Notes: a model not told the origin generated them from the sequence alone. A DNA stretch of 64,000 nt from an uncultured Vampirovibrionales bacterium (GCA_964387265.1 CAYLWC010000003.1:43468-107467), one strand, 5' to 3'; shown: positions 1,813 through 25,468, numbered from the stretch's first letter. A program made the numbers and translations.

Positions 1813-2931
1813 ATGGAGTTTGAGCAGCTTGTTCCGGACTTTCAACCCATTCCGTTCCCTGGGCCATTGTGGCTGCTGAAGCTGCTATTGATTGCCGGGT
1901 TCTATGGGCATGCCCTGCCCATGAACGTGGCCTTGATGGGGGGGCTGGTGGCTGGTGTGTTTATATTGACGGGCCAGCAAAAGGAACATGCGTATGCCCT
2001 TCGGTTAGGAAACACACTGGCGTTTTCCCTGCCGTTTTTTGTGTCTTTTGCAATCACCATGGGTATTGTGCCGCTGTTGTTTCTACAATTGGTCTACGGG
2101 CCACTATTTTACACCTCATCAGTGATTATGGCCGTCCCCTGGCTGTTGGTGATTTTTTTACTGCTCAGCGGTTATTACGGGTATTACGTGTTTGGCTATC
2201 AACGCCAGCGTCTGGCGGGGCGAGGCCCATGGTTCCTGCTGGCGATAGGTGTTGTGTTTATGGCCATCGCCTTTATGTTCAGCAACAACATGACCTTGAT
2301 GCTGACCCCAGATCGCTGGTTTGGCCTATACCATCACAGTCCTTCCGGCTTAAATCTGAATTGGGAGGAACCCCAGCTAATCCCCCGTTATGTGCATTTT
2401 ATAGTGGCGGCGGTGGCGGTGACGGGCTTAACCATTGGTACGTTTGGTCTATACTGGCACCCCCGCGAGCGGGAATATGGAAAGTGGCTGATTTCCACAG
2501 GGGCGGCGATTTTTCTGCTGGCTACCTTGCTTCAGTTTCCGGTGGGGATCTGGTTTATGCTGAGCTTGCCACATGACATCATGATGAATTTCCTGGGACG
2601 GGAGTTTTGGGGGACCGGGCTGCTGACCATGTCCATGGTGTTGGATGTTCTGGCGTTAGGGACCATGGTACTAGCTATGCGGAATGGCAGCCCCCGTCCG
2701 TTTCAGATCGGTATGGCGGCGTCCCTGATAGTTATTTTTCTGATGGTGGGGATGCGGCACATGCTCCGGGTGTATTACACCCAGGGGTTTTTTCAGCCGG
2801 AGGCCATGGCGGTTGAAACCCAGTTGATTCCGCTAGTCGCCTTTTTGCTTGGGTTGCTGGTGTTGGTGGGATACCTGATTTGGCTGCTTAAAATCACCTG
2901 GCAAGCGTTTCACTTACCACGTTCATTGTAG
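1813..2931 (+). CDS. Cytochrome bd subunit I-like (CydA-like, Q-loop-less 'bd-like') membrane protein, paralog 1
   Basis: About 8 TM segments. His in GFYGHALP is at the position of the CydA heme b558 ligand. It shares the MTLMLTPDRW motif with the downstream paralog (ITFMLTPGGW), matching E. coli CydA WILVANGWMQNP. GAGGG RBS. Confidence 0.6.
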   Translation: MEFEQLVPDFQPIPFPGPLWLLKLLLIAGFYGHALPMNVALMGGLVAGVFILTGQQKEHAYALRLGNTLAFSLPFFVSFAITMGIVPLLFLQLVYGPLFYTSSVIMAVPWLLVIFLLLSGYYGYYVFGYQRQRLAGRGPWFLLAIGVVFMAIAFMFSNNMTLMLTPDRWFGLYHHSPSGLNLNWEEPQLIPRYVHFIVAAVAVTGLTIGTFGLYWHPREREYGKWLISTGAAIFLLATLLQFPVGIWFMLSLPHDIMMNFLGREFWGTGLLTMSMVLDVLALGTMVLAMRNGSPRPFQIGMAASLIVIFLMVGMRHMLRVYYTQGFFQPEAMAVETQLIPLVAFLLGLLVLVGYLIWLLKITWQAFHLPRSL

Positions 2932-2960
2932 AGTGCGTCAAGAGAAGGGGGAGAAAATCC

Positions 2961-3440
2961 ATGTCTGCCGCGTCACCCAAACAACCTGGTTGGCCTTCTG
3001 GAAAGCCGGTGGAACGCCGAAATTTTCTGACCATTCTGGTGTCCGTGTTCGCGGCGCTTTGGGGCCTGATGACGCTGTATCCCATTTATCGGTATTTAAG
3101 GCCTCCCAAGGAGGATATGGCGGAAAGTACGGTTACGACGGTCATAGTCGGGGCGGCTGCTGATATTCCGGTGGGTAGCGGGCAGAATTTTCAGTTTGGC
3201 AATATCCCGGCCATCCTGACGCACCCGACGGAAACGGAATTTTATGCTTTTAACGCCATTTGTACCCATCTGGGATGTACCGTTCGGTTTCGCCCGGACA
3301 TGGATCGGATCTGGTGTGCCTGCCATGGAGGAATCTATGATCCGGTAACGGGCCGTGTTTTGGCGGGCCCCCCACCCCGCCCGCTGGCGAAACTAAAGGC
3401 AGAGGTGATCAATGATAATGTTGTGGTTTCTCGAGCGTAG
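2961..3440 (+). CDS. Rieske [2Fe-2S] iron-sulfur subunit of a bc/b6f-type complex (Tat-exported)
   Basis: RRNFL twin-arginine motif plus TM anchor. Box I CTHLGC and box II CACHGG. Strong GGGGGAG RBS. Confidence 0.9.
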   Translation: MSAASPKQPGWPSGKPVERRNFLTILVSVFAALWGLMTLYPIYRYLRPPKEDMAESTVTTVIVGAAADIPVGSGQNFQFGNIPAILTHPTETEFYAFNAICTHLGCTVRFRPDMDRIWCACHGGIYDPVTGRVLAGPPPRPLAKLKAEVINDNVVVSRA

Positions 3441-3454
3441 GGGAGGGACTCATC

Positions 3455-4531
3455 ATGACCTCTCCAGTTGAGCGTTTGTACCAGTGGCTGGATACCCGGC
3501 TGGATTTGGAAAGCTACCGGCGGTTTGCCGAGAATAAATGGGTGCCCATGCATCACCAATCGGCCTGGTATTACATGGGCGGGATTGTGCTGATACTCCT
3601 GCTGATTCAGGTGTTGACCGGGTTGTTGCTCATGGTCTATTACGTGCCGGAGATTAAATCAGCCTATACCAGCATCTTAAAAATTAATTCCCAGATTGAT
3701 TTTGGATGGTTTATTCGCTCGCTTCATAGTTGGGGTGCCAATTTAATGATTTTGGCGTTGTTCTTGCACATGTTTAGCACATATTTTATGAAGGCCTACC
3801 GCCCTCCCCGAGAAATTACCTGGCTGACCGGGCTTGTTTTATTGTTGATTTCGGTTGGATTTGGCTTTACTGGTTATTTATTGCCATGGAATGAAGTCTC
3901 GTTTTTTGCCACAAAAATTGGGGTGGATATTACGGCGCAAACCCCTGTTATTGGGGAGACACTGGCTTTTTTACTGCGTGGAGGGCTGGATTTAAACCAG
4001 AATACGTTGTCTCGGTTTTTTGCCATTCACGTGATTCTTCTACCCCTGGCAACCTTGCCGGTATTGGGACTGCACATATGGCTAGTGCAGTTGCATGGGA
4101 TGTCCGAGCCGGAGTCTCTTCAGAAACTGCCTCCTGAAAAGCGCTCTTATGAAAAGTTTTCTCCGACGTTTGTCTTAAAAGATGTGATGGTCTGGATTCT
4201 GGTGGTCAATGTGCTGGCGATTCTGGTATCGCTATACCCTTGGGATGTGGGCATAGAAGCCAATCCCTTTGCTCCCGCACCGATAGGCATTAAACCGGAA
4301 TGGTATTTTCTGGCCATGTTTCAGGTGTTAAAACTCATTCCGCCTTATGTGCTGTTTCTGGAAGGAGAGCAGTTTGGGATTCTGCTATTTACTTTGTTGG
4401 GCTTGCTGTTTGCCTTGATCCCTTTTTGGGATCGGGGGATTTCGGCGCTTCGGGCTAAACTAGCCACAGGGTTTGGCTGGGTGATTCTGGTGCTGTTTAT
4501 TGTTTTTACGATCTGGGGGTGGGTCTCATGA
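3455..4531 (+). CDS. Cytochrome b6/subunit IV fusion (cytochrome b of a b6f-type complex)
   Basis: Paired His in helix B (LHSWGANLMILALFLHMF) and helix D (AIHVILLP...GLHIWL). PEWYFL motif of subunit IV. 358 aa is consistent with a fused b6 plus SUIV. Confidence 0.9.
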   Translation: MTSPVERLYQWLDTRLDLESYRRFAENKWVPMHHQSAWYYMGGIVLILLLIQVLTGLLLMVYYVPEIKSAYTSILKINSQIDFGWFIRSLHSWGANLMILALFLHMFSTYFMKAYRPPREITWLTGLVLLLISVGFGFTGYLLPWNEVSFFATKIGVDITAQTPVIGETLAFLLRGGLDLNQNTLSRFFAIHVILLPLATLPVLGLHIWLVQLHGMSEPESLQKLPPEKRSYEKFSPTFVLKDVMVWILVVNVLAILVSLYPWDVGIEANPFAPAPIGIKPEWYFLAMFQVLKLIPPYVLFLEGEQFGILLFTLLGLLFALIPFWDRGISALRAKLATGFGWVILVLFIVFTIWGWVS

Positions 4532-5895
4532 ATTATCCACTGTGGGATGTGCCCTACTTGGGTATCAGCTGGGTGATTGGCATTATTTCCATTGTCCATA
4601 TTTATGTCTCTCATTTTGCCGTGGGAGGCGGTATGTTCCTCGCTATTACGGAAAATATCGCTTATAAAAGGAACGATCAGCGGATGTATGATTACCTGAA
4701 AACCCACTCCCTGTTTTTCTTGCTGCTGACTACGGTATTTGGCGCCGTCACCGGACCGGGCATCTGGTGGGCCATCAGTCTGGGCAGCCCCAATGGAACT
4801 CAGGTGCTGATTCAGAATTTTACCTGGTTTTGGTCTTTGGAATATCTGGCCTTTGCCGCGGAAATCGCCACGATATTTGTCTATTACTATACCTGGGAGC
4901 GCATGTCTCGGGAACTTCACCTGAAACTGGCCTGGCTGTATTTTGCCATTTCAATTGCCACGCTGGTGATTATTAACGGTATTATTACCTTTATGCTGAC
5001 ACCGGGGGGCTGGCTGGAAAGCCGTAATATTTTCGAAGGCTTCTTCAACCCTACCTATTGGCCATCGAACTTTCTTCGCTTATTGATTATGTTTGGGATT
5101 GCGGGTATGTATGCGCTGATTACCGCATCCCGATTGCGAGACCAGGATTTTCGATCCTACATGCTCCGTTATTCGGCCAAGTGGCTGTTACCCATCTTTT
5201 TTCTCGGCCCCATTGTTGGACTCTGGTATTTTTATAACGTGCCCCAGGCGGCGATTGATACCATCTTTACAGGGATACATGCCTCTGGGGTGGGGAATTT
5301 TTCCATTCTGGCCAGGGTGGTCTACTTAAGCCTGTTTCTTTCCGGCACGATTCTGGTGTTTGCTTTTGTGGGGCCGTATCTCAACCCCAGGGGGTTTTCC
5401 TTTTATACGGCCATTGCCTTTATGCTCTGCGGCCTGGTGGTAACAGGAATGTCCGAATGGACCCGTGAGCTGCTGAGAAAGCCCTATGTGGTCTATGGGT
5501 TTATGTATTCCAATGGCATTTTAAAAGAGCGCGTGCCGGAGATTAACCGCGTGGGGTTTCTTAAATCGGCCAATTGGGCGCGACAGTCGCAAATATCAGG
5601 TCGAATGGAAGCCGGTGAGTTGATGTTTCGCTTCCAATGCATGTCTTGTCATACCCGAGTCGGGTATCGGGGAATAGATAAACTGCTGGCTGGACGGGAC
5701 CCGGAAGGGATCCGGGGCCTGTTGGCCTTGCTTCGGGAAACCGATCCGGCTCAAAACCCATATTCCGGTATTATGCCGCCCTTGCTAGGCAACGATGAGG
5801 AAGTGGAGGCCCTAGCCGTGTATTTGGATACATTGAACGGCAAGGATGCAACAGACAATTCGGTTACAGAGTCGGCGGCCCCAACCACGGAATGA
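4528..5895 (+). CDS. CydA-like (bd-like) membrane protein fused to a C-terminal monoheme cytochrome c domain, paralog 2
   Basis: ATGA overlap with the cytochrome b stop. N-terminal IVHIYVSHFAVGGGMF resembles CydA helix 1 with a heme-ligand His, plus conserved Glu pair SLEYLAFAAE. C-terminal soluble domain has a single CMSCH heme-binding site. Confidence 0.65.
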   Translation: MNYPLWDVPYLGISWVIGIISIVHIYVSHFAVGGGMFLAITENIAYKRNDQRMYDYLKTHSLFFLLLTTVFGAVTGPGIWWAISLGSPNGTQVLIQNFTWFWSLEYLAFAAEIATIFVYYYTWERMSRELHLKLAWLYFAISIATLVIINGIITFMLTPGGWLESRNIFEGFFNPTYWPSNFLRLLIMFGIAGMYALITASRLRDQDFRSYMLRYSAKWLLPIFFLGPIVGLWYFYNVPQAAIDTIFTGIHASGVGNFSILARVVYLSLFLSGTILVFAFVGPYLNPRGFSFYTAIAFMLCGLVVTGMSEWTRELLRKPYVVYGFMYSNGILKERVPEINRVGFLKSANWARQSQISGRMEAGELMFRFQCMSCHTRVGYRGIDKLLAGRDPEGIRGLLALLRETDPAQNPYSGIMPPLLGNDEEVEALAVYLDTLNGKDATDNSVTESAAPTTE

Positions 5896-5924: not shown

Positions 5925-5968
5925 AAAAACAAAAAAATTCGCCCCGATATAAAGCGGGGCGAATTCAT
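5925..5968 (-). terminator. Intrinsic terminator for sodC (probably bidirectional, also closing the respiratory operon)
   Basis: Perfect 11 bp inverted repeat AATTCGCCCCG/CGGGGCGAATT with an 8 nt loop. A-tract on one side gives a U-run on the minus-strand transcript. Confidence 0.6.
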
Positions 5969-5990: not shown

Positions 5991-6512
5991 TTACTGAATC
6001 ACGGCGCAGGCAATTCTTCCACCCGCATCCCCAGCGGGTTGGGAGACGTAGTCATCGGCTTTGGCATGAATAACCAATGCGGAGCCGTTTTCATCCAGTA
6101 GGCCATGAGGCCCGTCATCCAGTGTCACATGGCTTGCTAGGACGTCCAGAGTTAACTTACCGTCGGCGTTCACATACACGTTGGGGAGATCACCGGCGTG
6201 ATACCCGCCTTCCACTTTATACCCATGGGCATGGCCTTGTGGGTTGTAGTGTCCTCCGGCAGAGGCGAAGTCTGGAGGCGTACAAGTCCCGGTTTCATGA
6301 ATATGAAACGCATGCCAGCCTTCCGGGAGGTTTTGCAGCTCCGCCTGAATCAATACGCCGTTTGGGGTTGCCTTCAGGGCGGCGGTTCCAATGGATTCAC
6401 CCTGCACGTTGATAAACGTGGCGGTGTGCTTCTGGCACTCAGCCAAAACGTTTGCCGTCACAACGCCCAGCGCCAAAACAATCGCAGAAGCAAGAGCAAG
6501 CTTGTATTTCAT
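5991..6512 (-). CDS. sodC: Cu/Zn superoxide dismutase, periplasmic
   Basis: Signal peptide MKYKLALASAIVLALGVVTA. Cu/Zn-SOD motifs HAFHIHETGTC, GGHYNP and GGRIACAVI. The 237 aa ORF is trimmed to the internal Met at 6512. Confidence 0.9.
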   Translation of the reverse strand: MKYKLALASAIVLALGVVTANVLAECQKHTATFINVQGESIGTAALKATPNGVLIQAELQNLPEGWHAFHIHETGTCTPPDFASAGGHYNPQGHAHGYKVEGGYHAGDLPNVYVNADGKLTLDVLASHVTLDDGPHGLLDENGSALVIHAKADDYVSQPAGDAGGRIACAVIQ

Positions 6513-6895
6513 TGTCTCATCCCCATCATAAACGGAACAGATTGTCTCCCCATTGTAAGCCAAAAACCTGAATTCCCCAACCCGGATGCCTACCGATGTT
6601 TCCACAGACCTTGCCCCAGTCAAAGCGGCAGGCTGATCTCGACAGTACAACAAATGGGGTGATTTTTTGGAAAGCCGGGCCAGATGTTCTGCCTGTGTAT
6701 GCAAGTGGGTCTATCCAATGGTGCTGTTGGATCGCGTTAGACAGGTTGCTAAGTGAAGGCTACCCATCTATCTAATTGCCAAAAAGGTTGTCAATCATTA
6801 AACTCTTGAACTGGTGCACCCGAGATTCGGATGAGATCGGGAAAGCAAGCCCCGGTATCAGCCACCGGTATCTACCAATGGAAGAGGGGGTACAT

Positions 6896-7342
6896 ATGGA
6901 AGAGTTAAAAAGACGGTCACACCCGGCATTGGTCCACTTTCCCATAACACTGTTTCCAATCAGTCTGGTGTTTTTGCTGCTTTTTTACGGAACCGGGAAT
7001 CCGTTTTTCTTTATGGCCAGCTATTGGTGCTTTATGTTTGGAGTGATCTCGGTCATTCCTGTTGCCTTGACCGGTCTGCATGATATGAAGCGACTCAAGC
7101 ATGTCTCAGAGCAAGGGCATCGCTTGATGAATCTGCATCTGAAAAATGGTGTTTTTATCACGGTATTGAGCCTGCTTCTTGGCTTTTTCTTCCTCTGGCA
7201 GCCGCCTTACCATCGGGAAGGTCTCTTTTTCTTTTATACGGCCAGCTTGGTCCTGTTGTCCATTCTGGTGATGGTGCAGGGTTATGTGGCTGCCCGAATG
7301 ATTTACGGATTTCACCTGGGGGTAGAGGGGGATACCCGGTAA
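6896..7342 (+). CDS. DUF2231-like small integral membrane protein
   Basis: Four predicted TM helices. HPALVHFPI motif. ATG at 6896 preceded by GAGGGGG. Confidence 0.5.
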   Translation: MEELKRRSHPALVHFPITLFPISLVFLLLFYGTGNPFFFMASYWCFMFGVISVIPVALTGLHDMKRLKHVSEQGHRLMNLHLKNGVFITVLSLLLGFFFLWQPPYHREGLFFFYTASLVLLSILVMVQGYVAARMIYGFHLGVEGDTR

Positions 7343-7612
7343 CCCGCTAAAACACACAACATGAATTCAGCGGCCTGAAGTAAGCGGGTCGCTGATTGGG
7401 CGAACTGAAACGGCTAGAGATGTCCCCTGGTGTCTTCCAGCTTATCCCGTTCATAGCGGGCATTTCTGCGTGTGGGTTTGAGGGTGGGATGGTAAGAAAA
7501 TAATTGTCTTTGTAAATAAATGTAAATATAAAAGGGATTTCGATCAAATATCCGAAGTATATATTTTTTATTTAAGCGTAGGGATGTTAAACAAAAAATG
7601 AGGGATAAAGGT

Positions 7613-10189
7613 ATGGCTATCAATTCGTCTTTTACGCTTTTAAACACTTTTCAAACCGGCAGTCTGATGCAATCTGCCAGCGCCGCCCAAACGGCTGCTT
7701 CTGTTTCTGTTGCCTCCGATGTGTTTGAGCTGAGCTCGGATCAACGTTGGGTGACCTGGAACAAGAACACCCGGCCCGACAAAATTGCTTATAAGGGCAA
7801 TATCTATGAGTATGAAAAAACCCAAGACGACGGGACGTTAAGATACTATGCGATTAATGCCAACAAATTACCGCAAGGGTCCCGCCGCCTGCGTATTAGC
7901 TTTACCGGTGATACCCGAAAAGCTGTGATTGGCTATGAAACCGAACGGGTCCAAGTAGGTACCGAGCAGGTTCAAATTGGGACCGAACAGGTTCAGGTCG
8001 GTACCAAGCAAGTCCAAACTGGAACCGAACTGGTCATTACCGGATATAACCAGGTTCAGACTGGAACCGAGCAGGTCCAGGTTGGAACCGAAAGTGTATT
8101 AACAGGTTATAAACAGGTTCAGGTCGGTACTGAGCAATTCCTGAAAGGGTATGAACAAGTTCAAGTAGGAACTGAGCAGGTTCAGGTAGGCACCGAGCAA
8201 GTGCAGGTGGGTACCGAACAGGTTCAAGTCGGTGAGCGCATTGTGGGTTATAACACCATCACCGAACAAGTTTCCCTTAAGCTCAGCCGCGAGCTGGATG
8301 GACGTGAAAACGCCGGTGCCATTGGGGATATGCTGAATCGAGGCACCCAACAGTTATCCGATGCCAATCAGTTCTTTTCAGGTGACAAGTTCAACATTTA
8401 CAAAGTCAGCAATTTGCTTGGCGAGGACAACCAGGCTATTTCCGGGGAAATCGACCCGCTGAGCGATATCAAATGCGCCGATGATATGTATGTGGCCGGG
8501 GATCCCCTGGTTGGCGGCAAGGGCAATAATTATGCCCCCGTGGATGTGAACCCGCAAACCGGTTACCTGACCATGTTTGAGGATGGCGCGGACAATGGAC
8601 GCAAAATTACGATTAACGCCCATGCCGATATTATCAACCCGGACGGCAACAAGGCCTTTACGGAATACGGGTTCGTGATTCAGGATGATAACCTGGAGAA
8701 AACCAAGGCGGTGTTATCCGGTGGGAAGCTGACCATTACCGCACCGAATGGCCAAACCCGGACCTTGCTGCCTGGTGAAGAGTATGTGATAGGCAATAGC
8801 GCCGACCCAACCGCCAAGTTCTACTATGCCAGTGTACCGGGCGGGGAAAATGGTGCCAACGAGCAACGTCTGATTTTTGAATCCTATGAAAAGCCCAGCC
8901 AGGCTGTGATTGATGAACTGGTGGCGAAAGGTATGGACCCCGTCCAGGCTGCGGCTTACCGGGCTAAAACCCAAGCTAGCTTTGGCTTCCGAGTGCCGGA
9001 TGGTCAGGGTTCCTACAGAATGTCTGCCGGGGTGGGCGCAGGAAACGCCTTATCAACCACCTCAAATGGTGTAAAAACATACTACGACGCTCACTTTAAC
9101 GAAGCCAACTGTCAGGATATCTGCTTTGACAAAGTGACCTACGAGCCGATTAAAGAGCCGGTATACGAAAACCGCCCGATCTATGGCGAACGTCCGGTAT
9201 ACGAACAGCGCCCTGTATACGAGAACCGTCCGATCTATGGCGAACGTCCAGTGTACGAACAGCGCCCTGTGTACGAGAACCGTCCGGTGTATGAAGATCG
9301 CCCGGTTTATGAGCAATGCCCCGTCTACGAAGAGCGGCCGGTATATGAAGATCGCCCGATTTATGAGCAATGCCCCATCTACGAAGAGCGGCCGGTGTAT
9401 GAAGAGTGTCCGATTTATGAAGAGCGGCCCATCTACAAAGAAAAGCCCGTCTATGAAGATCGCCAGAAGCCAATTTACGGGAAAGAATATAAAATTAAGC
9501 CCTCATTGGCCTCCCCGCTGGTCCTGGATCTGGATGGCGACGGCATCACCACCACCGATGTAAGCAAAGTGATTGATATTGATGGTGATGGCATCTTGGA
9601 TAAGTCGGCCTGGTTTGGTCCTCGTGAAGGGGTCCTGGCCTTCGACGCCAACCGGAATGGTCGGATTGACCTCAACGGCCTGGAACTCTTTGGGAACCAC
9701 AGTGACGTTGATGGTGATGGAAAACCTGATAACCACGAGAACGGTTTTGATGCCCTGAAGGCCTTTGCGGCCCGTCATCTGGGCCAGGCAGCCGTAGCCG
9801 ATAACCAACTGGATGCCGCTGAACTTCAGGCCCTGGAAAACCAAGCCGGTCTGCGGATGGTTGTAGGCAACCAGGTGCACAAGGTTTCCAGCTTCGGTAT
9901 TAACCAGATCAACCTGAATTATCAGGAAACCAACATTCAGGATCAGTTTGGGAACGAAACCCGTCAGGTATCCAGCTTCAAGCGGACCCTGAGCAACGGC
10001 CAGACTGTTACCCGGGATATCAATGATATCTGGTTGGTTAACACCCCAATGGATACCCAGCCACAGTCTGTGAATAAGCCTGCTCAGAGCCGGGCTCCCC
10101 AGCAACAACAGCCGATGGCTTTCGGGAACCTCTTCCAGCAGTTGTTTAATCTGTTCCAGCAATTGTTGATGCAGATGTCCCGGATGTAA
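7613..10189 (+). CDS. Large repeat-containing, probably secreted/surface calcium-binding protein (VQVGTEQ heptads, RPVYE hexads, DxDGDG loops, Gln-rich C-terminus)
   Basis: ATG at 7613 after a GAGGGA RBS and a 270 bp AT-rich leader. Tandem 21 bp and 18 bp DNA repeats encode the peptide repeats. Three DLDGDG/DIDGDG/DVDGDG motifs. Confidence 0.75.
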   Translation: MAINSSFTLLNTFQTGSLMQSASAAQTAASVSVASDVFELSSDQRWVTWNKNTRPDKIAYKGNIYEYEKTQDDGTLRYYAINANKLPQGSRRLRISFTGDTRKAVIGYETERVQVGTEQVQIGTEQVQVGTKQVQTGTELVITGYNQVQTGTEQVQVGTESVLTGYKQVQVGTEQFLKGYEQVQVGTEQVQVGTEQVQVGTEQVQVGERIVGYNTITEQVSLKLSRELDGRENAGAIGDMLNRGTQQLSDANQFFSGDKFNIYKVSNLLGEDNQAISGEIDPLSDIKCADDMYVAGDPLVGGKGNNYAPVDVNPQTGYLTMFEDGADNGRKITINAHADIINPDGNKAFTEYGFVIQDDNLEKTKAVLSGGKLTITAPNGQTRTLLPGEEYVIGNSADPTAKFYYASVPGGENGANEQRLIFESYEKPSQAVIDELVAKGMDPVQAAAYRAKTQASFGFRVPDGQGSYRMSAGVGAGNALSTTSNGVKTYYDAHFNEANCQDICFDKVTYEPIKEPVYENRPIYGERPVYEQRPVYENRPIYGERPVYEQRPVYENRPVYEDRPVYEQCPVYEERPVYEDRPIYEQCPIYEERPVYEECPIYEERPIYKEKPVYEDRQKPIYGKEYKIKPSLASPLVLDLDGDGITTTDVSKVIDIDGDGILDKSAWFGPREGVLAFDANRNGRIDLNGLELFGNHSDVDGDGKPDNHENGFDALKAFAARHLGQAAVADNQLDAAELQALENQAGLRMVVGNQVHKVSSFGINQINLNYQETNIQDQFGNETRQVSSFKRTLSNGQTVTRDINDIWLVNTPMDTQPQSVNKPAQSRAPQQQQPMAFGNLFQQLFNLFQQLLMQMSRM

Positions 10190-17562: not shown

Positions 17563-18228
17563 CTAATCGGCTATCTGGCTTAAGTGTTTTCGATCCAGCA
17601 CATGGACCCGACTGCCCTCCACTTTAATAAGCCCTTCGCCGCTGAGTTTTTTAAACGATCTGGACAGCGTTTCGGGAATGGTGCCCAAAATGGCGGCCAG
17701 CGTTTTCTTCTGGATTTTAATCACCGCTTTATCAGGTGAGTTCTCACTGACGGAAAGCAGGTACTTGGCCAGCCGGGAATCGACGCTTCGGAGGGAAAGA
17801 TCTTCGATGAGCCCGCTAAACTTATGGAGCCGTTGGGCAAACACGCTGAGCATGTTCAAGGCAATATCCGGGTGCATTTTAACGAGCTGTTGAAAGCCAG
17901 ACCCCTGAATAGCCAAAATTTTGGTGGGCTGCGTACACAGGGCATTGGCAGGATATCTCGGAATCCCGCTAAAGATCGGGACTTCTGCAAAAATCTCGCC
18001 TGGCCCAAACAAGTGCAAGATCATCTCCTTGCCTTCTCGCGAGATTTTATAAATCTGCACCTGCCCCTCCAGCACGATATAAAAAGACGTTGCCTCCTCG
18101 CCTTCCCCAAAGATCATTTCTCCCGATTCATACTGGTGAGCGGAACTGACGCGTGCCAGTTGTTCCAATTGTTCAGGGGTGAGCAGGCGAAAGTAAAGCT
18201 GTCGTTTGAGCAGGTCTTGAATAGTCAT
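17563..18228 (-). CDS. Crp/Fnr family transcriptional regulator
   Basis: N-terminal cNMP-binding beta-barrel (IFGEGEEATSFYIVLEGQV). C-terminal HTH (TLAAILGTIPETLSRSFKKL). Confidence 0.85.
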   Translation of the reverse strand: MTIQDLLKRQLYFRLLTPEQLEQLARVSSAHQYESGEMIFGEGEEATSFYIVLEGQVQIYKISREGKEMILHLFGPGEIFAEVPIFSGIPRYPANALCTQPTKILAIQGSGFQQLVKMHPDIALNMLSVFAQRLHKFSGLIEDLSLRSVDSRLAKYLLSVSENSPDKAVIKIQKKTLAAILGTIPETLSRSFKKLSGEGLIKVEGSRVHVLDRKHLSQIAD

Positions 18229-22978: not shown

Positions 22979-25468
22979 ATGTCGGACGGGGTATCCGGGG
23001 CAGATCATCAGGAAATGGACCAAAAATCCGATTCATCAAAAGAAGCCGGATCATGTTGCCATCATTCGCAGTTCACGGGGACGCATCGGGATCCGGTGTG
23101 CGGGATGAACGTGGAGGAAAGCCCGCTGCAATGGCAATATCAAGGAACAACCTATTATTTTTGTCGCCAGGGCTGTCTGGAGACCTTTAAGACTGACCCA
23201 AAACGGTATCTGAACCCCCAAACTGATGCTCAGACCTCAGCGACGGGCAAGTACATTTGTCCCATGTGCCCAGGGGTGGAGCAAGAAGGTCCGGGGAGTT
23301 GTCCCAAGTGCGGCATGGCTTTGGAACCCGAGCACCCGGTGGCGGCTCAGGAAAAAATGGAATATTATTGCCCCATGCACCCGGAAGTGGTCAGCGATCA
23401 ACCGGGAACTTGCCCCAAGTGTGGGATGGCCCTGGAACCTCGGCAAATTATGGTTGAGGAGGAAGAAAGCCCGGAGCTGAAAGACATGACCCGTCGGTTC
23501 TGGGTGTGCCTGGTCTTAACGGTTCCTGTTCTGGTGATTGCCATGGGGCACATGATTCCGGGGATGCAGGGGCTGGGTGCGGATCCGGTCTTTCGCTGGA
23601 TCGAGCTGATTTTGGCGACCCCGGTGGTTTTGTGGGGAGCCTGGCCGTTTTTCCAACGAGGGTGGGCTTCGCTTGTTAATAAGAGCCTGAATATGTTTAC
23701 CCTGATTGCCCTGGGGGTCGGAGTATCGTATTTATACAGTGTGGTGGCGGTGTTCATCCCGCAAGTTTTCCCCCCGGCCTTTCGGGATGAAGCCGGACAA
23801 GTCGGGGTTTACTTTGAAGCGGCAGCGGTCATTACCACGCTGGTATTGCTGGGGCAGGTGCTGGAATTGCGTGCTCGGGGGCAGACCAGCAGGGCGATTA
23901 AAGAATTGCTGGGGCTAGCGCCCAAAACCGCTCGTCTGGTCAAAGACGATGGTTCTGAAGAGGATATCCCTCTGGCCGAAGTTCGGCCCGGACAACATCT
24001 GCGGGTTCGTCCGGGGGAAAAAGTGCCGGTGGATGGAAAGGTTGTGGACGGGGCCAGCCAGGTGGATGAATCCATGATGACCGGCGAGCCGGTACCTGTG
24101 GAAAAACATCCGGGAGATCCGGTCACAGGTGGGACGGTGAACGGGACCGGTAGTCTGGTGATGGTGGCTGAGCGAGTGGGAAGTGATACGCTGCTGGCTC
24201 AAATTGTGTCCATGGTGAGTGAGGCCCAGCGGAGTCGGGCACCGATTCAACGGGTGGCGGATATGGCTGCCGCTTACTTTGTCCCGGCGGTTGTTCTGAT
24301 TGCGATTCTCACTTTTATGATATGGGCGATGATGGGGCCACCGCCCCAGATGGCGTATGCCATCGTCAATGCGGTGGCAGTGCTGATTATTGCCTGTCCC
24401 TGCGCTTTGGGGCTTGCCACTCCCATGTCGATTATGGTGGGAACAGGTCGGGGGGCCCAGGTCGGAGTCTTGGTCAAAAACGCCGAGACGCTGGAAGTCA
24501 TGGAAAAGGTGGATACGCTGGTGGTGGATAAAACCGGGACGCTGACAGAGGGAAAACCCAAACTTGTTACGGCGGAGGCGGCGCCTGGGTTTGAAGAGCA
24601 AACGCTCCTCAGGCTGGTGGCCTCACTGGAACGGGGCAGTGAGCATCCACTTGCGGCAGCCATTGTCCAGGGGGCGGAAGAGTGGGGCGTGACCTTTGCG
24701 CAGGTGGAAGATTTCCAATCAGTAACGGGTAAGGGGGCCATGGGGCGTGTGGAAGGGAAGCAAATCGCCGTGGGGAACAAGGCGTTGATGGAAGCCCAGA
24801 GTGTCCCGTTGGGCGATATAGAGCCCCGAGCGGAGGCGCTCCGGCAGGATGGGCAAACGGTTATGTTGGTGGCCATTGATGGTCAGCTGGCCGGCCTCAT
24901 TGGTGTGATGGATCCCATTAAGGCCTCAACCCCGGATGCGATTCGTAAACTTCATGAAGAGGGCCTGGAAATTATCATGATGACCGGGGATAACCGGACC
25001 ACGGCAGAGGTGGTGGCCCGGAAGCTCGGGATTGATCAGGTGGAAGCTGATGTGTTACCCGAGCACAAGGCTGATGTGGTAAAGCGCCTGCAAGCCAAGA
25101 GACGTGTCGTGGCCATGGCGGGAGATGGGATTAACGATGCCCCGGCCTTGGCCCAGGCCCAGGTGGGGATTGCCATGGGGACCGGAACCGATGTGGCCAT
25201 GGAAAGCGCTGGAATTACTTTGTTGAAAGGGGACCTACAAGGGATCGTCAAAGCCCGGCGGCTCAGTCAGGCGACCATGCGCAATATCCGCCAGAACTTA
25301 TTTTTTGCCTTTATTTATAACAGCTTGGGTGTCCCCATTGCCGCGGGGGTTCTTTATCCGTTTCTGGGGATTTTGCTCAGTCCGATGATTGCGGCGGCGG
25401 CCATGAGTTTTAGTTCTGTGTCGGTGATTGGGAACGCCCTTCGCCTACGCACTATAAAGCTATCATAG
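22979..25468 (+). CDS. copA: Copper-translocating P1B-type ATPase with N-terminal TRASH/YHS plus two CPMxP...CPKCGM metal-binding modules
   Basis: CPC transmembrane metal site ([10 protein letters not shown]). DKTGTLT phosphorylation motif. TGDN and GDGINDAP motifs. N-terminal YHS-like DPVCGMNV...YYFCRQGC. Confidence 0.9.

Follow-up and report, generated by a model that had tools for sequence, protein, structure and literature searches.

A Vampirovibrionia operon with Rieske and cytochrome b genes set between two genes of the cytochrome bd superfamily: a candidate copper-free quinol:oxygen oxidoreductase

Cytochrome bd oxidases are simple quinol oxidases that conserve little energy. Their superfamily has been split into the groups qOR, OR-C and OR-N (Murali et al. 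2021). OR-C enzymes have no quinol site, combine eight membrane helices with a C-terminal heme c extension, are encoded by adjacent OR-C1a and OR-C1b genes and are predicted to be cytochrome c-dependent O2 reductases; quinol use is predicted for those OR-N relatives that are linked to petABD (Murali et al. 2021). Here we describe an operon of four genes, g1 to g4, in a 64,000-nucleotide stretch of DNA from an uncultured Vampirovibrionales bacterium (GCA_964387265.1 CAYLWC010000003.1:43468-107467; this whole stretch is called the window). The operon places genes for a Rieske protein (g2) and a fused cytochrome b (g3) between two genes of the bd superfamily (g1 and g4). With a probability of roughly 60%, we read it as encoding a self-contained, copper-free quinol:oxygen oxidoreductase of two modules that work as one assembly with a Q cycle.

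Combining bd-like proteins with a Rieske/cytochrome b core is not without precedent. The OR-N1 and OR-N5a/b systems and the Nitrospira region with CIII_1 and bd-like genes likewise encode a bd-like pair together with Rieske and cytochrome b proteins (petA/petB/petD). Also as proposed here, quinol has been predicted as their ultimate electron donor and a supercomplex of the III-IV type has been suggested, and they too are biochemically uncharacterised. A strongly expressed region of the Nitrospira moscoviensis genome encodes complex III together with two bd-like oxidases and cytochromes c, and a supercomplex was proposed for it. In Melainabacteria, petB and petC beside cbb3 genes have been described as a complex III/IV combination, and a supplementary note on genome BJ4A mentions, without interpretation, "another" cydA directly upstream of a second cytochrome b6 gene set. 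Rieske or pet genes are not mentioned for OR-C in the paper defining it or in its supplements (Murali et al. 2021). Full-text searches, with most subscription journals outside their coverage, found no paper that links OR-C to Rieske/cytochrome b or describes the four-gene cassette. An earlier note on this DNA, made from the sequence alone, had set the operon apart from conventional pairings of Rieske/cytochrome b with cytochrome f or c1. This holds in that neither f nor c1 is found here, but the association of bd-like proteins with Rieske/cytochrome b has the precedents just named (OR-N1, OR-N5, Nitrospira and the Melainabacteria note). The protein families and the design principle are therefore known, but the combination and the lineage are not yet described.

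Calling of open reading frames (ORFs) on the window gave four tightly packed plus-strand genes across positions 1813-5895:

1813-2931, + strand: g1, 372 amino acids, nine-helix membrane protein of the CydA fold, probably of OR-C1b type, without CxxCH
2961-3440, + strand: g2, 159 amino acids, Rieske 2Fe-2S protein (Pfam Rieske, 1.6e-11)
3455-4531, + strand: g3, 358 amino acids, fused cytochrome b6/subunit IV (PF00033, Cytochrome_B, 3e-48, plus PF00032, Cytochrom_B_C, 6e-8, in one protein)
4528-5895, + strand: g4, 455 amino acids, bd-family subunit I assigned to the OR-C1a type, eight transmembrane helices (Cyt_bd_oxida_I, 37.3 bits)
5524-5835, + strand: C-terminal monoheme cytochrome c domain of g4, residues 333-436, with CMSCH at residues 371-375 (nucleotides 5638-5652)

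The g1-g2 spacer is 29 nucleotides (30 in the earlier count) and the g2-g3 spacer 14. The stop codon of g3 and the start codon of g4 share ATGA at 4528-4531; the last two values agree with those given before. On reading the sequence, a purine-rich Shine-Dalgarno stretch is seen upstream of every start from g1 to g4. The start of g4 was set at the ATG giving MNYP, an N-terminus conserved in the g4 family.

The g4 protein matches Pfam PF01654 (Cyt_bd_oxida_I) above the cut-off of 26.2 bits, at profile positions 5-230 of 418 only. Similarly, a PDB search aligned residues 21-163 alone to Geobacillus CydA (2.3e-8). Among 46 homologues, H24, W80, E105, E112, Y119, Y120 and H131 are invariant and Y121 nearly so. 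By alignment, H24 corresponds to H21 of Geobacillus CydA and H19 of the E. coli protein, and E105/E112 align to E. coli E99/E107 with the deletion of a single residue that is usual outside qOR1. The AlphaFold model (predicted local distance difference test score, pLDDT, 84) shows eight membrane helices and a helical domain following the eighth. PF13442 and PF00034 match this domain weakly in g4 itself and above their cut-offs in homologues, and its heme c residues C371, C374, H375, M416 and P417 are invariant in the same 46 homologues; M416 is the likely axial methionine of a monoheme class-I cytochrome c domain. This heme c is the sole c-type heme encoded in the operon. Because the N-terminus of CydA lies outside and g4 has eight helices, the domain should be periplasmic.

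The second half of the g4 membrane domain lacks the elements by which CydA receives electrons. No histidine is conserved in helices 5-8 among the 46 homologues, leaving no heme b558 ligands of the H186/M393 type, and the helix 6-7 link is short in the AlphaFold model, so that there is no Q-loop; a short link is also found in the model of g1, in keeping with the earlier note, which had seen no Q-loop in either protein. As the heme b558 histidine and the Q-loop are missing, the route by which CydA accepts electrons from quinol is closed to g4. There is no CydB-like gene either, and g1 is the conserved partner. Compared with canonical CydAB(X) enzymes (qOR1-3; PDB 6rko, 5ir6 and 7d5i), g4 is thus without Q-loop, b558 ligands and CydB/CydX, electrons in our proposal enter by its fused cytochrome c, and its partner is nearer to CydA than to CydB. 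Many g4 homologues bear the name "cytochrome ubiquinol oxidase subunit I" in databases, the genome paper on V. chlorellavorus includes "a bd-type quinol" oxidase in its list, and the PF01654 score exceeds its cut-off, all of which would suit an ordinary quinol-oxidising bd subunit I that merely adjoins an unrelated bc-type complex. This explanation is most improbable, given that sequence similarity to CydA is confined to helices 1-4, the helices number eight and not nine, a cytochrome c is fused to them, and g1 stands where CydB would be expected, in addition to the missing Q-loop and H186/M393 equivalents. On the same grounds (Q-loop, heme b558 ligands, CydB) we rejected a canonical quinol bd oxidase, which also corrects the name "ubiquinol oxidase subunit I" that g4 homologues commonly bear in these genomes.

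The residues listed for the OR-C1a reference are H24, E105, E112, S145, H131, Y119, Y121 and W80 (Murali et al. 2021, Table S6); it has F183 and no H186, M393 or E445 (Murali et al. 2021). Of the former, H24, E105, E112, H131, Y119, Y121 and W80 all recur in g4 with identical numbering, Y121 being nearly invariant; the missing residues agree as well, although E314 of g4 may correspond to E445 (see below). The eight transmembrane helices, the lack of a quinol site and the C-terminal CxxCH domain are further likenesses, and we assign g4 to OR-C1a on this evidence. The earlier pointer to Nitrospira-type bd-like proteins is consequently not borne out: the proteins fall in OR-C, the branch with a fused heme c, and not in OR-N. 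Membership in OR-N5 or OR-N1 was rejected by helix number (eight in g4 and nine in g1), heme c, Y119/Y121 and the lack of an H186 equivalent. By comparison, OR-N proteins span the membrane with 10 (N5) or 14 (N1) helices and lack a fused heme c, an H186 equivalent is retained in OR-N5a, which has W118/N120 where g4 has Y119/Y121, and the OR-N hosts are Nitrospirota, Nitrospinota, Chloroflexota and Rubrobacter.

The first gene product, g1, has no Pfam or NCBIfam match, and comparison with PDB sequences, using g1 singly or as a profile, gave nothing meaningful. Its AlphaFold model is confident (pLDDT 93.8) and contains nine helices. BLASTP between g1 and g4 is not significant (E = 0.24), but the two family profiles align with an hhalign probability of 96% (E 2.6e-9, 283 columns). 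This alignment puts H33, invariant in the g1 family, onto H24 of g4 and matches the MLTP(D/G)xW block common to both (TLMLTPDRW in g1, TFMLTPGGW in g4). We conclude that g1 and g4 are remote paralogues. The block and the histidine on which the earlier note had based its "clear paralogs" are thus in place, but the relationship is far from clear at the level of single sequences; the CydA-like identity is likewise confirmed by Pfam for g4, while g1 gains it only through its profile kinship to g4. Both proteins have the CydA/CydB helical fold, g1 resembling CydA more than CydB, and neither scored with another family such as NrfD or ResB, so that the identification of both flanking proteins as CydA-like stands. 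An NrfD/PsrC-type subunit (for example ActC/ActF of alternative complex III, ACIII) was considered and rejected, the best match not being to the NrfD family.

No CxxCH and neither of the proton-channel glutamates is present in g1, which keeps an invariant H33, R192, R315 and R319, a nearly invariant H195 and, in the majority of sequences, a histidine at 316. The published OR-C1b list contains many "hypothetical proteins" without heme c that adjoin OR-C1a genes, with examples from Hydrogenobacter thermophilus, Desulfovibrio vulgaris DP4, Thermocrinis and Granulicella; the gene order is a then b in Hydrogenobacter thermophilus and b then a in Desulfovibrio vulgaris (Murali et al. 2021). The orders that we find for g4 and g1 (see below) fit the gene identifiers listed for these two species, and the taxa overlap as well. 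Like these entries, g1 counts as "hypothetical", contains 0 CxxCH motifs, has an OR-C1a gene in the same operon and occurs in the same phyla and gene orders. We therefore infer that g1 belongs to the OR-C1b type without heme c, matched by taxa, gene order and the zero-heme "hypothetical" entries.

An exhaustive profile search placed g1 relatives in 2,493 clusters at 50% identity, 728 of them at E <= 1e-30, and the present analysis supplies a name and a fold for this large family, which is without a Pfam model. One protein, P0368 (798 amino acids), is a fusion of an OR-C1a-like protein to a g1-like protein, which supports g1 and g4 acting together.

Two other members of the g1 family have unusual architectures. 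P0369 is fused to CusF and SCO1/SenC copper-chaperone domains, odd for a supposedly copper-free family and reminiscent of the copper site once proposed for the Nitrospira bd-like oxidase. P0288 carries a Tll0287-like domain.

Helices 5-8 of the two proteins hold candidates for further heme sites. The outer end of helix 8 in g4 bears the invariant R313-E314-x2-R317-K-P, which resembles the E. coli CydA motif E445-Y-G-R448-Q-P-W, and the profile alignment sets R315-H316-x2-R319 of g1 on R313-E314-x2-R317 of g4. In the AlphaFold model of g1, H195 lies at the outer end of helix 5, in the position of CydA H186. Accordingly placed by motif and topology, E314 may be the equivalent of E445, a second heme ligand scored absent in the Murali table, and g1 may itself bind heme if the equivalences H195/H186 and H316/E445 hold. 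Aligning the family profiles to the single E. coli CydA sequence (hhalign in local, global and low-threshold modes) recovered helices 1-4 only for g4 and nothing credible for g1.

The two genes between g1 and g4 encode the parts of a quinol-oxidising core. The g2 protein has an N-terminal RRNFL motif of the twin-arginine translocation (Tat) type, one transmembrane anchor and the cluster boxes CTHLGC/CACHGG. Its cluster ligands C101, H103, C106, C119, C121 and H122 do not vary among 29 cassette copies, and its top solved relatives are Rieske proteins of the b6f type (8hn2_A, 7e-18). In g3, the closest PDB match of the N-terminal half is cytochrome b6 (6rqf_I, 6.8e-54), with weaker matches to bc1 cytochromes b (~1e-45). 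The RRNFL motif and the Pfam matches thus bear out what had been said of a Tat-exported Rieske protein and a fused cytochrome b6/subunit IV. The heme-b histidines of g3 form the pairs H91/H105 and H192/H207, which enclose 13 and 14 residues, respectively. An H-x14-H spacing in helix D is a mark of b6-type cytochrome b. The motif of the quinol-oxidising (Qo) site is PEWY, and Tyr40 aligns to the heme-cn Cys35 of spinach and cyanobacterial b6 (6rqf_I alignment); the four histidines, PEWY and Tyr40 are all invariant in the 29 copies.

At the same time, both proteins score under the NCBIfam cut-offs for PetC and PetB, g3 reaching 232 bits with the cytochrome b6 model against a cut-off of 325, and a cytochrome f-like gene was found neither in or beside the cassette in 27 loci nor among the ORFs of the window. 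Because of these scores, the lack of a heme-cn site and the lack of cytochrome f, we read g2 and g3 as a working b6-like Rieske/cytochrome b module and not as a b6f complex. The likeness to b6f (PetB/PetD/PetC/PetA) lies in the nearest solved structures of g3 and g2, the H-x14-H of helix D, PEWY and the Tat-type Rieske protein; the differences are the fusion in g3, tyrosine for the heme-cn cysteine in 29/29 copies, and no cytochrome f or small subunits in or next to the operon. A true b6f complex was rejected on the fused b6/subunit IV, the tyrosine and the absence of cytochrome f nearby. Calling the operon "b6f-type", as was done before, is hence apt for the b6-like cytochrome b, with its b6 relatives in the PDB and its helix D spacing, but not for the fused subunit IV or the tyrosine at the heme-cn position. 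A homologue search with the cytochrome b returned only cassette-type orthologues, with no paralogue linked to cbb3 and no outgroups.

Gene neighbourhoods were compared by scanning one genome per species, which gave at least 555 g1 relatives; the best 80 loci were analysed, of which 74, not cut by a contig end, were informative. In all 74, a g4 homologue with 1, 2 or 8 CxxCH motifs shares the operon with g1. Gene g4 comes first in Acidobacteriota, Bacteroidota, Ignavibacteria, Calditrichia, Zixibacteria and Armatimonadota, and g1 comes first in Desulfobacterota. Outside Vampirovibrionia the two genes are directly adjacent; in the window two genes part them. The order g1-Rieske-cytochrome b-g4 occurs in 26 of the 27 loci of Vampirovibrionia type (Vampirovibrionales, Obscuribacterales, Caenarcaniphilales and unnamed Melainabacteria), so that the four-gene order is conserved in relatives, in favour of the reading in the earlier note. 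Of 24 loci scored for the ATGA overlap of cytochrome b with g4, 18 retain it, as does the window. No Rieske or cytochrome b gene stands beside the g1/g4 pair in other phyla among the 80 loci, where the neighbours are regulators, a ZIP transporter or a multiheme cytochrome; nor is any other gene, including those for cytochromes c, f or c1, conserved next to the cassette in the 27 loci, the flanks of which vary. In midpoint-rooted neighbour-joining trees, the cassette copies form one clade for g4 and one for g1, with a locus called L021 as the sole intruder. Named homologues above 55% identity (g1, g3 and g4) come from Vampirovibrio, Obscuribacter, Melainabacteria or metagenome-assembled genomes (MAGs) with doubtful labels, which places the window in the class Vampirovibrionia.

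Several of these MAGs that bear the cassette (among them loci L006, L023, L025 and L026) are labelled Gammaproteobacteria, Proteobacteria or Oculatellaceae/Coleofasciculaceae, and their cassette proteins cluster with Vampirovibrionia. The submitters' labels are probably wrong; a photosynthetic cyanobacterium that truly had the cassette would be notable. In the intruder L021 (L021:2079-4689, Caenarcaniphilales MAG RE-15aug16-7), g1 and g4 are adjacent without Rieske/cytochrome b and nested in the cassette clade, which reflects either secondary loss of the two genes or misassembly. Two loci of Bacteroidota type (L038:3403-7131 and L040:3392-7101) have a g1-like gene preceded by a tandem pair of bd-like genes, both of which encode a cytochrome c domain, and represent a three-gene version of the OR-C system.

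The two-module quinol:oxygen oxidoreductase that we propose builds on the identity, fold and conserved ligands of the four proteins, on the lack of those parts of CydA through which electrons enter from quinol, and on the conservation of the cassette with its translational coupling. One module would be the Rieske/cytochrome b quinol oxidase of g2 and g3, without a cytochrome f or c1 of its own; the other would be an OR-C-type oxidase made of the catalytic g4 and of g1 in the structural place of CydB. Quinol would be oxidised at the PEWY Qo site. The first electron would pass from the Rieske cluster to the periplasmic heme c of g4, acting as substitute for cytochrome f/c1, and on to a high-spin heme site at H24 within helices 1-4, where O2 would be reduced with protons delivered via the E105/E112 channel; the second would be recycled through hemes bL and bH in a Q cycle. 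Proton translocation by that cycle would then come on top of the charge separation at the bd-type site, and no copper would be involved. The composite quinol-oxidising complex suggested earlier is supported by the cassette order and by the conserved ligands of its parts, but that suggestion had overlooked the cytochrome c fused to g4, the evident substitute for cytochrome f/c1.

A single assembly is favoured because the Rieske/cytochrome b proteins have no c1 or f and the oxidase has no quinol entry but has the only heme c of the cassette. The conserved synteny, the coupling in translation and the lack of a cytochrome c1/f are likewise the reasons why the four proteins probably form one complex, in which the heme c of g4 would be the acceptor of the Rieske electrons and O2 the acceptor of g4. 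Several observations weigh against this. The g1/g4 pair stands alone in all other phyla examined and, within the cassette clade, in L021, and the oxidase module therefore has no strict need of a Rieske/cytochrome b donor. Sulfate reducers, too, commonly have members of the family, so O2 is maybe not its sole substrate. Helices 5-8 of g4 are not matched residue by residue to CydA by sequence (for example E314 and E445). Furthermore, no purified or assayed member of OR-C or OR-N has been reported, and a 2024 paper still called the subunit composition and O2 reduction of OR-N unconfirmed.

The stand-alone pairs are also the chief argument for a looser arrangement, in which the two modules are co-transcribed without forming a stable complex and a cytochrome c encoded elsewhere, diffusible or membrane-tethered, links Rieske/cytochrome b to the heme c of g4, by which the oxidase must also be supplied in phyla that have the pair alone. 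The g4/g1 operon occurs with no Rieske/cytochrome b nearby in Acidobacteriota, Bacteroidota, Ignavibacteria, Desulfobacterota and others, L021 retains the pair alone, and cytochrome c is the predicted donor of OR-C (Murali et al. 2021). We regard this arrangement as rather unlikely: the Rieske/cytochrome b has no partner of c1 or f type in the cassette or its conserved surroundings, and the position of its genes between those of the oxidase, coupled to g4 by the conserved ATGA, would be difficult to account for if the enzymes were independent.

Alternatively, g1 and g4 may not reduce O2, and would instead use another acceptor (NO, nitrite or peroxide) or serve mainly as a membrane module with heme that supplies the Rieske/cytochrome b complex with the c-type cytochrome it lacks and hands electrons to a periplasmic partner. 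In favour of this, the literature holds no assay of any OR-C or OR-N enzyme, g4 lacks the ligands of heme b558, members of the family, with as many as 8 hemes c, are plentiful in anaerobic Desulfobacterota, and the g1 histidines (H33, H195 and the majority histidine at 316) could hold extra cofactors. However, H24 and both channel glutamates of g4 are invariant, as in the O2-reducing CydA, the hosts are predicted in the literature to be microaerobic respirers, and the location of the operon in the window between msrA and sodC suits an oxic setting, though these flanks are not conserved. An acceptor other than O2 is consequently decidedly unlikely. As a tentative extension of the two-module assembly, on which we place clearly less than even odds, the proteins might form an obligate copper-free "bc-bd" supercomplex in which Q-cycle translocation is added to bd-type charge separation and g1, more than an inert scaffold of the CydB kind, maybe binds extra cofactors. 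The candidate residues for such binding may be H33, H195 (the b558-type ligand position) and R315-H316-x2-R319.

Set against other respiratory systems, the cassette differs from described OR-C operons, in which the a gene adjoins the b gene and free cytochrome c is the presumed donor, in having Rieske and cytochrome b genes between the two. Actinobacterial bcc-aa3 is a complex III-IV combination without soluble cytochrome c. It and the petBC-cbb3 of Melainabacteria resemble the present operon in encoding Rieske/cytochrome b with a terminal oxidase and in using a bound heme c as bridge; here, however, the oxidase belongs to the copper-free bd superfamily and not to the heme-copper enzymes, and the bridging heme c is on the oxidase subunit and not on complex III.

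Vampirovibrionia (Melainabacteria) are the non-photosynthetic sister group of oxygenic cyanobacteria. If the proposal is true, electrons reach a bd-type O2 site in these bacteria via the Q cycle of Rieske/cytochrome b and the cytochrome c fused to g4; such an oxidase would be independent of copper, have a high affinity and give a higher proton yield. The proposal would also account for the working of a b6-like complex without cytochrome f in this group, and would bear on the origin of the b6f complex and of aerobic respiration in the cyanobacterial lineage. A specialist in bioenergetics would not be astonished, given the OR-N precedent; nevertheless the four-gene cassette is a testable candidate for the never-isolated bc-bd complex and, being compact, a convenient target for heterologous expression and cryo-EM (electron cryomicroscopy).

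The operon is bordered by the following features:

1080-1697, - strand: msrA (methionine sulfoxide reductase), divergent neighbour upstream of g1
1698-1812, + strand: 5' intergenic region from the divergent msrA to g1, with Shine-Dalgarno GAGGG at 1800-1804 (sequence reading)
5935-5966, no strand: GC-rich hairpin with a stem of 11-12 base pairs between the convergent g4 and sodC (terminator scan, sequence reading)
5991-6704, - strand: sodC, Cu/Zn superoxide dismutase, convergent neighbour downstream of g4
6776-7342, + strand: DUF2231 membrane protein, downstream of sodC

The hairpin is likely a bidirectional terminator that ends the operon. The promoter presumably sits in 1698-1812; a promoter scan found fewer sites in the window than in shuffled sequences, with none of them, nor a convincing sigma-70 consensus, in this interval. 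Together, msrA, the Cu/Zn superoxide dismutase and the DUF2231 protein form an oxidative-stress neighbourhood around the operon, and these flanks are not kept in 26 other cassette loci.

Scans of the window for tRNA genes and Rfam families returned none, and no further respiratory genes were found among its 30 additional ORFs. Elsewhere the window has genes for DnaE, glucan-degrading enzymes, transporters and regulators. Less than 20 kb from the operon are a heavy-metal P-type ATPase with YHS and HMBD domains (22979-25468, + strand) and a regulator of the Crp/Fnr type (17563-18228, - strand). An ORF for 863 amino acids at 7598-10189 (+ strand) has no Pfam match and contains two internal repeat arrays. 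The first, at 7939-8226, is built of 21/42/63-nucleotide units encoding GTEQVQV-like heptads, and the second, at 9158-9459, of 18/54-nucleotide units encoding RPVYE(N/Q/D)-like hexapeptides; its product may be a surface or secreted repeat protein.

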